From a virus (taxonomy: Duplodnaviria; Caudoviricetes): DNA of 26,819 nucleotides. Positions 6,537-25,974 of this stretch are shown here, piece by piece; within the stretch, counting starts at the first letter, position 1, and each line of letters opens with the position of its first letter. Location of the stretch: positions 1-26,819 of the IMG/VR virus record IMGVR_UViG_3300003375_000118; one strand, 5' to 3'. The notes beneath the pieces are model-generated. The model was not told where the DNA came from, ran no database searches, and saw nothing but the letters and a program-made list of their open reading frames with translations. The position numbers were made by a program, and so were the translations under genes.

Positions 6537-6565
6537 TTGACTTATCTATTTTCCTATGATATAGT
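6537..6565 (+). promoter_or_regulatory. Sigma70-type promoter upstream of hairpin repeat B
   Basis: TTGACT (6537-6542), 17-nt spacer, TGn-TATAGT (6560-6565). Confidence 0.6.
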
Positions 6566-6572
6566 ATTACCC

Positions 6573-6608
6573 GTGATGATAACGTTTATATACGTTTATC
6601 AAAATCAC
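6573..6608 (+). ncRNA. 36-nt hairpin repeat, copy B
   Basis: GTGATGATAACGTTTATATACGTTTATCAAAATCAC; GTGA/TCAC basal stem, GATAACGT/ACGTTTATC upper stem. Confidence 0.7.
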
Positions 6609-6631
6609 ACTGTTGCCATATAATATACAAA

Positions 6632-6641
6632 ATGGTGTCTA
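6632..6641 (-). promoter_or_regulatory. TAGACACYA motif (candidate late promoter)
   Basis: TAGACACCAT on the minus strand, immediately after a terminator. Confidence 0.6.
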
Positions 6642-6647
6642 ATTAAT

Positions 6648-6684
6648 AAAAAAGTGGGTATAACTTTTAAATTATACCCACTTT
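6648..6684 (-). terminator. Rho-independent terminator (possibly bidirectional)
   Basis: AAAGTGGGTATAA / TTATACCCACTTT stem with a U-tract on the minus strand. Confidence 0.75.
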
Positions 6685-6847
6685 AAACAAAAATAAATGA
6701 GTGAATAACTCTCATTTATGGTGTGGTGTACTACTCCACAAACAAACTGACCGTAAGAATAGTGTGAATCAATATGAGGATATGAGGAACACTATTAATA
6801 ATAAATAGTAATAAGGTTTATATAAATACATATTTATTTAATATATT

Positions 6848-13473: not shown

Positions 13474-14103
13474 TCATTCAGGAGAAGGAACGTAAGGTTC
13501 ATTTATGACATTAACTTGGGCTTTATTTCTAATACTACTATTAACAACTTTAATGGCACCTTCTGTTTCTGCATTTTGACACCACTCAAAAAACAATCTT
13601 CTTAAATTCATATTAAGTATTTCTGTTTCACTATATCCCATTTTTTTAAATATTTGCCATACACCAATTTTCCAATCTAAACCTGTGGGTGTTTGATTTT
13701 GTTTCTGTTCAATGCTGTATATAGGCATATTAAAGAAATATGTCATATAGTCTCGGAATTGATTAACTTTAGTATATATGTTCCAATCTTCTCCTTCAAT
13801 CTCCATGTCGGCATCAATAACTTCTTTTATTGAACTGATGATATCTTTTGCTTCATTATCATCATTTAGAACTGCTAATCCATCTTCATATGATAGGGAA
13901 CATATAGTTAATGCTTTAAAGTAATCTAATAGTCCCGTCTTAATATCAATGTTTACGACGTCTGAATTTATTAAAGGACTATCTATTCTCTCTAATAGTA
14001 ATAAATGACCGAGGCAGAATGGTTTCAATTCAATACTACAAACAATGAATTTCTTTGGTAATATTGCCTCAGGATAATAATATAATGTATATGGATTTGA
14101 CAT
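13474..14103 (-). CDS. Putative tail assembly chaperone
   Basis: 209 aa between tail tube and tape measure; C-terminal GYSETEILNMNLRRL resembles gpT-like segments. Confidence 0.6.
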   Translation of the reverse strand: MSNPYTLYYYPEAILPKKFIVCSIELKPFCLGHLLLLERIDSPLINSDVVNIDIKTGLLDYFKALTICSLSYEDGLAVLNDDNEAKDIISSIKEVIDADMEIEGEDWNIYTKVNQFRDYMTYFFNMPIYSIEQKQNQTPTGLDWKIGVWQIFKKMGYSETEILNMNLRRLFFEWCQNAETEGAIKVVNSSIRNKAQVNVINEPYVPSPE

Positions 14104-14120: not shown

Positions 14121-14148
14121 TTGACTTTCTTAATTACTATGGTATAAT
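14121..14148 (+). promoter_or_regulatory. Sigma70-type promoter upstream of hairpin repeat C
   Basis: TTGACT (14121-14126), 16-nt spacer, TGn-TATAAT (14143-14148). Confidence 0.7.
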
Positions 14149-14157
14149 GCATATATA

Positions 14158-14208
14158 GTGACGATATCGTTCTCATACGAATATCAAAATCACTGTTGCT
14201 CCGGCTGA
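14158..14208 (+). ncRNA. 36-nt hairpin repeat, copy C (14158-14193), plus a 15-nt segment antisense to the tail-tube mRNA starts (14194-14208)
   Basis: GTGACGATATCGTTCTCATACGAATATCAAAATCAC followed directly by TGTTGCTCCGGCTGA, identical to 14700-14714 and 15144-15158. Confidence 0.75.
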
Positions 14209-14245
14209 TAATAATAAATAGTAATATAAAATATCAAAATGCAAT

Positions 14246-14284
14246 AAAAAAGGACTGATCTAATAAATCAGTCCTTTAATTTTT
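14246..14284. terminator. Bidirectional rho-independent terminator
   Basis: AAAGGACTGAT / ATCAGTCCTTT stem with an A-tract on the left and a T-rich tract on the right; downstream of the tail-tube genes and of repeat C. Confidence 0.75.
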
Positions 14285-14300
14285 ATATTAATTAAATAAA

Positions 14301-14717
14301 TTAACTTAATATATTGAGATATCTTATTAACTTTAACGTTACTTTAGTTGCATCCGTGTTCATTTCTTTCTGTGTAGTGGATTCTACGAGCCAGTTTGTA
14401 GATGCAACGGCATCACCAGAAGCTACAGAAACCGTTACGTTCGTACCTTGATCAGGTTTACTGATTACAGCAGAACCATTAACGGCACTAGAATCACTAA
14501 CGACATACTCAATCGTAGCCGTTGCCGTAGGATTATAGAATATCACGGCAGCTACACTACCACTTTGATTTCTTATTTCATTCTTCTCTACATTTTCGTC
14601 GTAATCAATGCTCTGAAATGATCCAGAAGCACCCGTTACGGTTACCGTTGAAGAGCCTAATCCCCATCTTAGATTTACTCCTGATGAGGCATGATACTGT
14701 GTTGCTCCGGCTGACAT
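14301..14717 (-). CDS. Major tail (tube) protein, paralogue 2
   Basis: 138 aa, beta-rich, in the tail-tube position; 120/138 aa identical to its neighbour. Confidence 0.7.
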   Translation of the reverse strand: MSAGATQYHASSGVNLRWGLGSSTVTVTGASGSFQSIDYDENVEKNEIRNQSGSVAAVIFYNPTATATIEYVVSDSSAVNGSAVISKPDQGTNVTVSVASGDAVASTNWLVESTTQKEMNTDATKVTLKLIRYLNILS

Positions 14718-14744
14718 ATTATATTATTTCCTTTATGTTAAAAA

Positions 14745-15161
14745 TTAGCTTAAAATGTTCAAGTAACGTATGAGTTTAAGTGTTACCTTAACAGCATCCG
14801 TGTTCATTTCTTTTTGGGTCGTAGATTCTACTAACCAATTAGTTGATGCAACATTGTCACCACTTGCAGCCGTAACAGTTACATTAGTTCCTTGATCGGG
14901 TTTCGTAATAGTAGCTGATCCATTGACTGCTGAACCATCACTTACGATATACTCAATGGTTGCTGTTGCCGTAGGATTGTAAAACACGACTGCTGCCATC
15001 GTGCCTCTTTGATCACGAATTTCATTCTTTTCAACGTTTTCGTCGTAATCAATAGATTGAAATGTGCCCGTGGCATTAGTTACGGTTATTGCTGAGGATC
15101 CTAATCCCCATCTTAGATTTACCCCTGATGAGGCATGATACTGTGTTGCTCCGGCTGACAT
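14745..15161 (-). CDS. Major tail (tube) protein, paralogue 1
   Basis: 138 aa; AAGGA SD-like site upstream; tandem duplicate of 14301-14717. Confidence 0.7.
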   Translation of the reverse strand: MSAGATQYHASSGVNLRWGLGSSAITVTNATGTFQSIDYDENVEKNEIRDQRGTMAAVVFYNPTATATIEYIVSDGSAVNGSATITKPDQGTNVTVTAASGDNVASTNWLVESTTQKEMNTDAVKVTLKLIRYLNILS

Positions 15162-15189
15162 ATTATATTATTTCCTTATATTATTTTGA

Positions 15190-15199: not shown

Positions 15200-15670
15200 T
15201 TAATTTGTATTTAAACTACATATCACACGAAATGTAGTACAGTTCTCCAATGCATCCTCAATAAATTTACATGTATTATCAAGTGTTTGTACTTGAAATG
15301 CCACGAAATTAAATGTACTATTATTCCACTGACTCGTTATGTTATAACCAGGAATTTGATAAATAGCACTGAATATTTGCATTGCATATTGACTTAAATT
15401 GGTCGTTGATGTATCATATGCCATTTCTAATACTTTAACTTCAACGGTAGCATCAAATACATTTGTTTGATAGTATGTTTCTCTTGCATCCACCACGTTT
15501 ACCGTACATAATGGTGCCGATTTAATTTGGTTATTAATACCAGTATAAATAGGAAATGAACTGCCACTCAAGCTACTGCTTGGATTCATACTACTGCTAT
15601 TGAGAAAGGTAACAAAACTGCTTTCCAAAGCAAAATTAATAGGAACATATGATCCTGTAGGTAGTGGCAT
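15200..15670 (-). CDS. Putative tail terminator (gpU-like)
   Basis: 156 aa directly before the tail tube (synteny). Confidence 0.55.
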   Translation of the reverse strand: MPLPTGSYVPINFALESSFVTFLNSSSMNPSSSLSGSSFPIYTGINNQIKSAPLCTVNVVDARETYYQTNVFDATVEVKVLEMAYDTSTTNLSQYAMQIFSAIYQIPGYNITSQWNNSTFNFVAFQVQTLDNTCKFIEDALENCTTFRVICSLNTN

Positions 15671-15676
15671 ATAATA

Positions 15677-16054
15677 TTATGATTGGCAAGATATATATTG
15701 TAAATAGCTGCCACTAACTTCGTTATAAGTACTTTTTCCATATAGAGTTACCGATCCAGAGTATGGTAATAATGCTGTATCGGATGGTGCTAATATTGTA
15801 TTATATTGTATACTGGATGTATTCTGACATATTAATACGGATGCAGAAGCATTAGGATTACTAAGAAACAAATATCTTAGATTAGTTGCCGTACCTTGAT
15901 TAATCAATGTCCATGCACTACTGGTAATAGCCAATGTAGATGCTAAATTATTAGATGACGTAAGATATACTGTATCGGTAAGTACACCTTGAGATTTAAT
16001 ATTATTGTTCGTTAAAACAACTAAACCGTTAATTACGAATGAATTGGTTGCCAT
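15677..16054 (-). CDS. Hypothetical virion protein
   Basis: 125 aa, beta-rich Ser/Thr/Asn composition, in the neck region. Confidence 0.6.
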   Translation of the reverse strand: MATNSFVINGLVVLTNNNIKSQGVLTDTVYLTSSNNLASTLAITSSAWTLINQGTATNLRYLFLSNPNASASVLICQNTSSIQYNTILAPSDTALLPYSGSVTLYGKSTYNEVSGSYLQYISCQS

Positions 16055-19329: not shown

Positions 19330-20013
19330 TTACTGGGAGTCTTCTACTTTTTTTTTAGAAGATTTAACAGGTGCTTTCTTAACGGTTTCCTCTTCAGCTT
19401 CTTCAGCAGCAGATTCTTCCTCAGCAGCATTGTTTTTACCTTCATCAGAGACAGGCTTACTATCTCCAACTTTCTTACCACCAGCAGCTAAATAACCTTT
19501 GTCATAACCACTTAAATAACCACAATCATATCCTTTAGAATACTCTTCAGAATAATCTTCATCAACTTTATTATCGGCAATGGCTTCTTCTTCCTCTGCT
19601 TCCTCAGCAGATTCTTCTTCACCATCTTCATCGGATTTATAAGGCACACCTTTTTTCTTATCGTTATAAACAGCTTTCTTTTTAGGTGATTTACCTTTTT
19701 CTTCTTCTTCAGCTTCTTCAGCAGATTCCTCTTCCTCTGCTTCACTATCTTCACTATCTTCATCTTGATATGGTGATTTCTTTTTGGTAGGGATCTTTTC
19801 AGATTTCTTAGGCATCTTACCCTTTTCCTCTTCCTCAGATTCCTCACTGTCTTCATCGGATTTATCCTGATAAGGTGCCTTAGCTTCTTCCTCATCGTTC
19901 TTAATAGGAACTCCAGGAGAACCAGGAAGTTTAGCCTTCATGTACTTATCAATGGCTTGAGGGCAAACCATCCACATATTTTTATCGTTATCGTTATCAA
20001 ATTTTGAGATCAT
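19330..20013 (-). CDS. Highly acidic repeat protein; probable N-terminal part of the protease via a -1 shift
   Basis: EEESAEEAEEEE and PYQD/PYKS repeats. A -1 shift in the A9 run at 19348-19356 reads without a stop into the protease ATG. Confidence 0.7.
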   Translation of the reverse strand: MISKFDNDNDKNMWMVCPQAIDKYMKAKLPGSPGVPIKNDEEEAKAPYQDKSDEDSEESEEEEKGKMPKKSEKIPTKKKSPYQDEDSEDSEAEEEESAEEAEEEEKGKSPKKKAVYNDKKKGVPYKSDEDGEEESAEEAEEEEAIADNKVDEDYSEEYSKGYDCGYLSGYDKGYLAAGGKKVGDSKPVSDEGKNNAAEEESAAEEAEEETVKKAPVKSSKKKVEDSQ

Positions 20014-21698: not shown

Positions 21699-21965
21699 TT
21701 AAACGTAGTAAGGACGAGATGTAGATGAAATAGGTCCATATTTAGCAGGATTCATTTGCTTTAAACAATAACGACTTTCTGCTAATACTTGATCAACGGG
21801 TAATGTAAACTTTCTTTTATATTCTGTTCCTTCACCATTATACTCGAGAATGGTTTTTCCTTCCAATACAAGTTGTAATGCTACTGCCCTAATTGCTAAA
21901 ATAGCCGATTCTGTATCAATAATTGGATCAAATAGCATCCCACGGGTAATATTATTTTTGCTCAT
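21699..21965 (-). CDS. gpW-like head-to-tail joining protein
   Basis: 88 aa between terL and portal, the lambda gpW position. Confidence 0.55.
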   Translation of the reverse strand: MSKNNITRGMLFDPIIDTESAILAIRAVALQLVLEGKTILEYNGEGTEYKRKFTLPVDQVLAESRYCLKQMNPAKYGPISSTSRPYYV

Positions 21966-21993
21966 ATATAAATTAAGTTGACTTTCTAATATT

Positions 21994-24655: not shown

Positions 24656-24689
24656 ATCTTATAAATATGAAATAAAAATATCAAAAAGC

Positions 24690-24790
24690 AAATTAAAACC
24701 ACTAACCCATCCCTACATTCACAAATATCATCTATCGTAGCTAGTAACACATCTGATATATCAATACCCATCATCAACAACACTAAATCA
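24690..24790. repeat. Inverted repeat, right copy
   Basis: Exact reverse complement of 1-101. Confidence 0.97.
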
Positions 24791-25417: not shown

Positions 25418-25446
25418 TTGACTTCTATGGTAAAGTAATATATATT
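25418..25446 (+). promoter_or_regulatory. Sigma70-type promoter upstream of hairpin repeat D
   Basis: TTGACT (25418-25423), 17-nt spacer, TATATT (25441-25446). Confidence 0.55.
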
Positions 25447-25455
25447 AATAGTATA

Positions 25456-25491
25456 GTGCTGATAACATTACGATATGTTTATCAATTACAC
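25456..25491 (+). ncRNA. 36-nt hairpin repeat, copy D
   Basis: GTGCTGATAACATTACGATATGTTTATCAATTACAC; CAT/ATG replaces CGT/ACG (compensatory change). Confidence 0.65.
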
Positions 25492-25517: not shown

Positions 25518-25630
25518 TAATGTCAAGACTAATACTTTTTATAATTTTGGATGTATAAATTTTTGTAATTATAAAATTATAATGTCAAGTCTAATACTTT
25601 TTATAATTTTGGATGTATAAATTTCTGTAA
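25518..25630. repeat. Direct repeat, 2 x 51 bp (period 62)
   Basis: 25518-25568 and 25580-25630 differ at 2 positions. Confidence 0.9.
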
Positions 25631-25974
25631 GTATCTAATAATTGTATAATTACGTATGAGAATTACTTATAAGTTATATAAAAAGGTAATACTGTATGGA
25701 ATACTAGCTAGTTCAATGCCATCCACCAAAGAGAATTCCTAAGGTGGGTAGGGTCATTACATTAACGATAACGTTAATATATAAAATAAATACACATCAT
25801 ATACGTTCCCTACTATTGATAATATCAACACTATAAGTACTAACTATACGATGTGTATTGCCATGTTATGACTACATTCTATGGTCTTATGTAATTGATT
25901 TCTTATTTTGATTAATGGGTATTAAATAATTAAAGATTATAGTATAGATGATAGCTATGTGCTGTATGGTATTA

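Follow-up and report, generated by a model that had tools for sequence, protein, structure and literature searches.

Why should a phage carry, directly behind a hairpin on the strand opposite to most of its genes, a short sequence complementary to the translation starts of two of its own tail-tube genes? This question is raised by a 26,819-nucleotide (nt) stretch of viral DNA (Duplodnaviria; Caudoviricetes; IMG/VR record IMGVR_UViG_3300003375_000118), a metagenome contig of an uncultured phage that was examined in whole and is referred to here as the window. It has a G+C content of 33%, and the sequencing runs containing it are labelled as freshwater. The element in question, unit C (14121-14287, plus strand), is a predicted small-RNA gene with a product of ~130 nt, and we see about an even chance that this RNA acts in trans as an antisense RNA repressing tail-tube translation. 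This reading is plausible, structurally coherent and unproven.

The 15-mer TGTTGCTCCGGCTGA occurs on the plus strand at 14194-14208, 14700-14714 and 15144-15158 without any mismatch, and no further site was found in the window with up to two mismatches allowed. Dinucleotide shuffles (n = 100) contain on average 0.01 matches, and none of the 100 reached three copies; the triple occurrence noticed in an earlier sequence-only reading of this DNA is confirmed and lies far beyond chance. At both tube genes, the 15-mer is the complement of codons 2-6, and the remaining copy begins at 14194, the first base past the closing CAC of a 36-nt repeat (repeat C, 14158-14193). The next two bases (T and A, 14209-14210) can pair with the G and U of the AUG as U-G and A-U, so that the antisense segment (14194-14210, plus strand) comprises 15 nt identical to both tube starts plus two pairing bases. 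In total, 17 contiguous pairs span nucleotides +2 to +18 of both tube mRNAs, with the A at 14211 unpaired. The target sites (14700-14716 and 15144-15160, minus strand; codons 1-6) are both preceded by the four bases ACTG. The 17-nt pairing reaching into the AUG, the start of the match exactly at the repeat boundary and the ACTG flank of both targets had all been described in the sequence-only reading, and direct inspection of the sequence bears them out. Likeness to the tube genes ends at the 15-17-mer, as the 30-nt flanks are identical at 7-11 of 30 positions, compared to 8.4 ± 2.5 for random pairs. Because the identity ends sharply on both sides, the segment is unlike a decaying gene copy. 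In addition, codons 2-6 of the tube genes are the GC-richest among the 28 genes examined (9/15).

Unit C is composed, in this order, of a promoter, a 5′ hairpin, the 17-nt segment, an A/U-rich stretch and a terminator. The putative sigma-70-type promoter (14121-14148, plus strand; TTGACT-16-TGgTATAAT) matches at 11 of 12 positions and has an extended -10 element in addition, which makes it the only 11/12 site with a TG in the contig. Judged from the usual spacing, transcription would start at about 14155-14157, 1-3 nt before repeat C, which is predicted from its fold, compensatory pairs and a covariance model to form a 5′-terminal stem-loop. The antisense segment begins 46 nt past the -10 element of this promoter, the best sigma-70-like one of the contig. 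Downstream, a predicted bidirectional intrinsic terminator with an 11-pair stem (14249-14287; plus strand 14249-14277) is common to unit C on the plus strand and the tube gene TT1 on the minus strand. The region 14156-14287 (132 nt) folds at -27.7 kcal/mol (z = -4.77) with both the 5′ hairpin and the terminator intact, and no open reading frame (ORF) of at least 40 amino acids (aa) was found on its plus strand. The promoter and the intrinsic terminator around a short non-coding stretch predict, at the level of sequence, a transcription unit of its own. On the opposite strand, unit C fully overlaps in antisense the upstream leader of a 209-aa gene (13474-14103, minus strand) that belongs to no family and occupies the position of a chaperone.

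The 30 nt behind the hairpin of unit C form a predicted duplex of -32.8 kcal/mol with both tube start regions (-31.5 to -32.8 kcal/mol for the site in the TT1 mRNA), compared to -14.4 kcal/mol for the next best among 29 start regions; none of 200 shuffled segments reaches -32.8 kcal/mol. Opening costs amount to 6.4 kcal/mol for the RNA and to 6.2 and 4.9 kcal/mol for the mRNAs of TT1 and TT2, respectively, leaving a net energy of about -19 to -20 kcal/mol. The UCCGGC core of the segment (14200-14205) is predicted to lie in an open loop with an unpaired probability of 0.8-1.0. Complementarity to the initiation region beyond chance, placed in a part of the RNA that is predicted to be accessible, is as expected of a base-pairing small RNA. 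Pairing within about the first five codons of an mRNA blocks 30S binding, and we take the duplex over nucleotides +2 to +18 to fall inside the region where pairing has this effect. The sequence-only reading had suggested a trans-acting guide that represses tail-tube synthesis. The repression part is strengthened by the promoter-hairpin-segment-terminator setting and by a pairing energy far beyond that with other starts, whereas the guide or spacer part did not stand, as detailed below.

The two target genes, TT1 (14301-14717) and TT2 (14745-15161), both lie on the minus strand and each encode 138 aa, with TT2 87% identical to TT1. No family was found in Pfam, PHROGs or NCBIfam for the tube proteins or the genes adjoining the units, and a tube profile gave only chance-level antibody matches against the PDB sequences. 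A deep profile search collected 181 relatives of the tube protein, and a 144-sequence alignment was fed to AlphaFold2, yielding a model with a pLDDT of 83 and a pTM of 0.70; it replaced an earlier, unusable model from 14 sequences (pLDDT 36.7). Structural similarity search using Foldseek revealed that the model resembles the tail tube protein of siphophage R4C (8gtb_A), with TM-scores of 0.56/0.59, in addition to the tubes of phage 812, a gene transfer agent (GTA), SPP1 and a monocin (8q01, 6tba, 6yeg, 8qhs). The matches in BFVD include “Tail tube protein” and “major tail protein TP901-1”, and the nearest named atlas clusters carry Phage_tail_2 and Phage_TTP_12, in 24% and 17% of members, respectively. 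Both genes sit between the head-tail genes and the likely chaperone plus tape measure. The assignment as tail-tube genes, already made in the sequence-only reading, is thus supported by the modelled fold together with their position in the gene order. TT1 and TT2 share the same sequence between the ribosome site and codon 20, save for one synonymous change (14655-14733 and 15099-15177), and past codon 20 they differ synonymously at 56 codons and non-synonymously at 18. This tract of ~78 nt has probably been homogenised by gene conversion; more generally, the identity of the starts is suggestive of a gene-conversion tract or of selection acting on the start region as a whole.

Unit C belongs to a family of four units. 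The 36-nt repeat has three further copies, A (2937-2972), B (6573-6608) and D (25456-25491); the four are solitary, lie 3636, 7585 and 11298 nt apart and are 69-81% alike to the reference copy. A covariance model of the repeat matches just these four copies within the window (copy C scores 49.6 bits). In the hairpin alignment, 45 of 48 pair cells are standard and three of the 12 pairs have compensatory changes, with a covariation score reached by 4 of 500 shuffles; moreover, all four hairpins retain an asymmetric internal loop and a 1-nt bulge. All units are on the plus strand, opposite to 30 of the 32 long non-nested ORFs taken as genes. Each hairpin stands 7-11 nt past the -10 element of a plus-strand sigma-70-type promoter, so the predicted transcripts would start 0-5 nt before the hairpin. 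The -35 element is TTGACT (6/6) in all four units, an extended -10 TG is present in three (A, B and C), and the -10 positions T1, A2, T3, A4 and T6 are kept throughout, whereas the spacers vary, as do the 7-11 nt that precede the hairpin. The promoters read TTGACT-16-TG-n-TATACT in unit A (2898-2972), TTGACT-17-TG-n-TATAGT in unit B (6537-6684) and TTGACT-17-TATATT in unit D (25418-25491), all on the plus strand. In unit B, the hairpin is followed by ACTGTTGCCAT, a late motif and a terminator (6651-6684). Among the 40 promoter-like sites of at least 10/12 in the contig, four have the extended -10 TG, three of them in units A, B and C. The hairpins are followed by TGTTGC, ACTGTT, CTATAT or TAATAT, without a T-run, and none is listed as terminator-like. 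The fold of unit B is well below that of shuffles (z = -5.3), and that of unit A is less clear (z = -1.4). A search of the whole window against Rfam at gathering score gave no match, and permissive Rfam scans of units C and B gave only sub-threshold matches on the terminator hairpins, with no CRISPR-DR model on the repeat.

Some further repeats touch these units. An exact 18-mer (2890-2907, identical to 21970-21987) joins the -35 region of unit A to the upstream region of the hairpin-less gene 21699-21965. Downstream of unit D, two tandem 62-nt repeats (25518-25641; 90% alike) each contain a 12-codon hydrophobic mini-ORF opening with ATG TCA, and the transcript of unit D would run into both. 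A AGAAAGTCAA-like box lies on the minus strand 14-22 nt before five start codons (2887, 6521, 14103, 16054 and 21965), and the TTGACT box may therefore serve both strands. That TTGACT merely represents a ribosome-site-like leader element (AGAAAGTCAA upstream of the genes ending at 16054 and 21965) was considered and rejected, as it leaves the conserved extended -10, found only in hairpin units, unexplained; it is kept as a caveat.

We propose that host RNA polymerase would use the unit C promoter early during infection or, should the phage be temperate, in the lysogenic state, and that the 5′ stem-loop and the terminator would stabilise the RNA; 5′-terminal stem-loops are known to stabilise bacterial RNAs. 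The exposed 17-nt segment would then pair with nucleotides +2 to +18 of both tube mRNAs, likely blocking ribosome binding, and the RNA could restrain tube translation until the late mRNA outnumbers it. Alternatively, it might silence the tube genes of closely related incoming phages. The four units may also act in cis on the adjoining gene leaders, through antisense RNAs or colliding transcription, with unit C being the unit that gained a trans target. Its segment probably arose by copying a piece of the tube-gene start, and an origin by duplication and a present function are compatible. We favour a trans-acting RNA because a neutral scar is unlikely to combine a perfect GC-rich 15-mer with background-level flanks, coverage of the initiation region, an orientation antisense to a strong promoter and a place in the open part of the unit.

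Several observations weigh against this proposal. Within unit C, the terminator has an interrupted U-tract on the plus strand (TTTAATTTTT), and the ends of the 17-mer are weakly paired in the minimum free energy fold, with a mean unpaired probability of 0.40. The sequence-only reading had rightly cautioned that TGTTGC also follows repeat B, after an extra AC; it accounts for 6 of the 15 nt, so just 9 of the 15 nt are private to unit C. Taken together, the promoter-like sites are no more frequent than in shuffles (70 vs 79.3; 82 vs 83.0), and the case for the promoters therefore rests on the conservation of their elements across diverged copies, not on the scan. In addition, a TTGACT box without a -10 element or a hairpin stands upstream of two other minus-strand genes. 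As the homogenised tract of ~78 nt at the targets is far longer than the pairing, the identity of the two sites is no evidence of selection by the RNA. A significant trans target was found for one of the four units: A and D score at shuffle level (p = 0.56 and p = 0.43), and the marginal score of B (p = 0.045) stems from a common late-gene upstream sequence, so that trans targeting is not the common function of the family. Finally, the flank of unit B reads, on the minus strand, TTAGACACCATT...ATG GCA ACA and then the hairpin, with the late motif and first codons the same as those of the virion gene 15677-16054, which suggests that the unit flanks may be captured or left-over, cut gene starts.

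Unit C itself is a mosaic, as judged from the pieces it shares with other parts of the window. The 15-mer is followed by an A/U-rich, AAN-type 18-mer (14209-14226, plus strand) identical to 6796-6813, which is one of five exact repeats of at least 18 nt in the window (0.05 in shuffles), and similarity to 24661-24703, a stretch upstream of the packaging operon, is seen in the A/T-rich part. The foremost alternative builds on this composition. It holds that the four units are real cis elements, in which host-type promoters oppose late transcription and cis-antisense RNAs run over the leaders of the 79-aa, 97-aa and 209-aa genes, and that the 15-mer is a by-product of recombination with no selected trans role; we consider it rather unlikely. 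It accommodates the mosaic nature of unit C, including the TGTTGC shared with unit B, the resemblance of the unit B flank to a cut gene start, the absence of convincing trans targets for A, B and D, and the orientation of the 15-mer, which is the same as that of the tandem tube genes, as for a left-over copy. However, neutral decay would not leave a perfect GC-rich 15-mer between background-level flanks, and this one exactly spans the initiation-blocking region, in an exposed part of the RNA and antisense to its promoter. Moreover, both RNAs, if present together, would form a 17-bp duplex of about -32 kcal/mol, selected or not. If the segment were specifically the left-over start of a third tandem tube copy, this would explain its orientation and its origin from a gene start, but not why the ATG and all similarity upstream were lost.

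A bolder extension of the antisense reading, which we regard as improbable, takes the four units as a Cas-independent programmable antisense RNA system, in which a constant promoter and 5′ hairpin capture 5′ pieces of late genes and express them as guides that time virion-gene translation or, from a prophage, silence the tube genes of related invaders. Unit C would have captured 15 nt of a tube start, and unit B the late motif together with ATG-GCAAC from a different virion gene; escape would be recorded in codons 2-7 of the tube family, which are variable. It also seems distinctly improbable that the cassettes serve at the DNA level only, as recombination hot spots like the PeSL elements of T4-type phages, with the 15-mers being junction microhomologies devoid of RNA function. 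According to the accessible text of PMC2839356, dispersed cassettes of a sigma-70 promoter and a stem-loop mediate modular shuffling, and the exact 18-mers that join unit A to 21970-21987 and unit C to 6796-6813, together with gene conversion between the tube paralogues, would agree with such a role. Yet the compensatory changes in the stem and the kept -35, TG and -10 elements indicate selection on transcription and on the folded strand, homologous recombination predicts near-identical copies rather than ones 69-81% alike, and a hairpin that follows the promoter and has no T-run is unlike the PeSL terminator.

A very unlikely possibility is that the minus strand is the functional one, such that the UCAGCCGGAGCAACA copy and the hairpin in the leader of the 209-aa gene form a regulator site common with the tube mRNAs, bound by a protein or, via the internal GGAG, by the ribosome. 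Folding of the hairpin is just as favourable on the minus strand (-5.0 to -8.6 kcal/mol), GGAG occurs in the 15-mer with a GUG 5 nt further on, and at three of the four hairpins a minus-strand start codon lies 65-85 nt downstream. Nevertheless, apart from the hairpin, no excess of structure is predicted in the leader 14215-14080 (z = 0.11), no minus-strand gene lies downstream of hairpin D, short reading frames across the hairpins are not conserved, and the conserved extended -10 elements are given no role. In viral solitary repeat units, a promoter for each repeat has been described, and each repeat here likewise has its own; still, the claim of the sequence-only reading that the segment resembles a spacer or DNA-targeting guide, meaning a CRISPR-like or other nuclease guide against tube-gene DNA or RNA, or else solitary repeats serving as RNA anti-CRISPR decoys, is extremely unlikely and as a CRISPR-like guide largely refuted: beyond a 36-nt repeat with an internal hairpin and GTG...CAC ends and a match starting exactly at its boundary, it fails each feature tested, with the copies solitary, 3.6-11.3 kb apart, 69-81% alike and carrying compensatory changes, a match in one of four units and to the phage's own essential genes, no Rfam CRISPR-DR match on the repeat, no PADLOC model matched by any of 26 proteins of the contig (which may be incomplete), and no Cas family among its proteins in Pfam or PHROGs.

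The tube protein, used singly or as an alignment, found no match in viral or genome contigs and only its own contig among metagenome contigs, and a search with the major head protein for the DNA of relatives yielded none. The terminase search found 19 loci at 24-33% identity, none with the hairpin (best 17 bits, E = 0.42), and a degenerate pattern of the repeat had no match in viral contigs. Tube-protein relatives with other N-termini do exist (MAATAT..., MALSAQ...). The exact 15-mer occurs elsewhere at no fewer than 118 loci in viral contigs and at least 120 in genome contigs, corresponding to an estimated ~1700 stretches in the whole genome collection. Of 258 loci collected in all, 257 were screened and none encodes a tube homologue; as none of the 238 outside matches to the 15-mer is preceded by CAC, these are chance matches. 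Pieces identical to the window were found in seven runs (X2, X3, X5, X9, X19, X20 and X24), and no run listed as containing the window is recorded as RNA. One further run (X23) contains a variant strain that is 95-99% alike, with 5, 8 and 1 differences in 13596-13798, 14627-14813 and 15232-15300, respectively. Its contigs span the start of TT1, where the 8 changes in 187 nt leave the 17-mer untouched, and stop short of unit C.

Trans-acting antisense RNAs of phages are known, such as the c4 RNA of P1/P7, the CI RNA of satellite P4 and the sar RNA of P22. Like the predicted RNA of unit C, they are small structured phage RNAs in which short exposed segments pair near the ribosome-binding or start region and shut off a phage gene. 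In contrast, their targets are early, immunity or antirepressor genes, and they are mostly processed from, or overlap, the operon they regulate, whereas unit C would have its own sigma-70 promoter, belong to a family of four units and act on two late tail-tube genes at distances of 0.5 and 0.95 kb. No relationship in sequence or in Rfam was found between unit C and these RNAs (C4, sar and all other Rfam families).

For structural genes, antisense RNAs acting in cis are on record. In Pseudomonas phage PAK_P3, 15 of 20 antisense RNAs lie in the structural region and are proposed to act early, keeping the late structural genes silent (PMC4933390). As described in the accessible text of that paper, antisense transcription within the structural module is the common feature, but all PAK_P3 RNAs except one are encoded within genes and taken as cis-acting, whereas the units here are intergenic, have a conserved 5′ hairpin in common and show one discrete trans target at two start codons. 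The RNA STnc6030 of Salmonella prophage BTP1, again as far as the accessible text goes, pairs with the tailspike mRNA, lowers its expression and excludes superinfecting relatives, with escape mutations clustering in the paired region (reviewed in PMC12197685). It is likewise a phage RNA pairing with the mRNA of a virion gene; however, STnc6030 is cis-encoded, whereas unit C is encoded elsewhere and has a match of 15-17 nt at the start codon. Moreover, a temperate lifestyle, as of the prophage BTP1, is hypothetical for the contig here. The PeSL elements resemble the present units in being several dispersed intergenic cassettes of a strong sigma-70-like promoter and a stem-loop in mosaic surroundings, in the part of PMC2839356 that is accessible. 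According to the same text, the stem-loops of PeSL elements are effective transcription terminators; the hairpins here, which do not look like terminators, lie 7-11 nt past the -10 element at the transcript start, have no T-run, point against the genes and carry compensatory changes. No trans-encoded phage small RNA aimed at tail-tube start codons was found in the open-access literature searched, including passages of the 2025 review PMC12197685, which is no proof of absence.

Most of what is known about antisense RNAs in phages comes from a small number of temperate model phages, in which they act on early or immunity genes or in cis. If our favoured reading is true, unit C would add a self-contained, trans-acting small RNA that hits both paralogues of the most abundant tail protein together, at their start codons, and the translation of virion genes could be gated by RNA. 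The design would be simple and portable: a host promoter, a 5′ stabilising hairpin, a 17-nt seed and a terminator. The four units might represent a natural series for studying how such RNAs originate from fragments of their targets. Should the segment be no more than a recombination scar, the units would still be a new set of conserved antisense promoter-hairpin cassettes in a structural module.

Other features of the contig lie outside this argument. PHROGs names the large terminase, the portal, the head protease and the major head protein, and all terminase matches in cultured phages are less than 60% identical (22-25% among the matches listed). The motif TRGTGTCTA on the plus strand, reading TAGACACYA on the minus strand, has eight intergenic copies in one orientation (6633, 13462, 15191, 16085, 17104, 18599, 20041 and 21999). 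They lie ~8-35 nt upstream of minus-strand gene starts, except for 6633, which is 112 nt upstream with unit B in between; a motif of this type is found upstream of TT2, and TT1 is without one. The motif is a candidate phage late promoter or operator, and since the count of the 9-mer is not above shuffles (11 vs 9.7), the case for it rests on position and orientation. A perfect inverted repeat of 101 nt (1-101 and 24690-24790) has its first arm right at the start of the contig; it may have arisen in assembly, as an artefact of the contig end, or be a real inverted or invertible structure. By arithmetic from the ORF list, joining the two contig ends into a simple circle would leave the ORFs that run off them out of frame by one base. 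Lastly, the gene 19330-20013 contains several GAA/GAG-rich direct repeats on its coding strand (19387-19865) and would encode an acidic repetitive protein; it is placed between the portal and the protease, the usual location of the scaffold protein.

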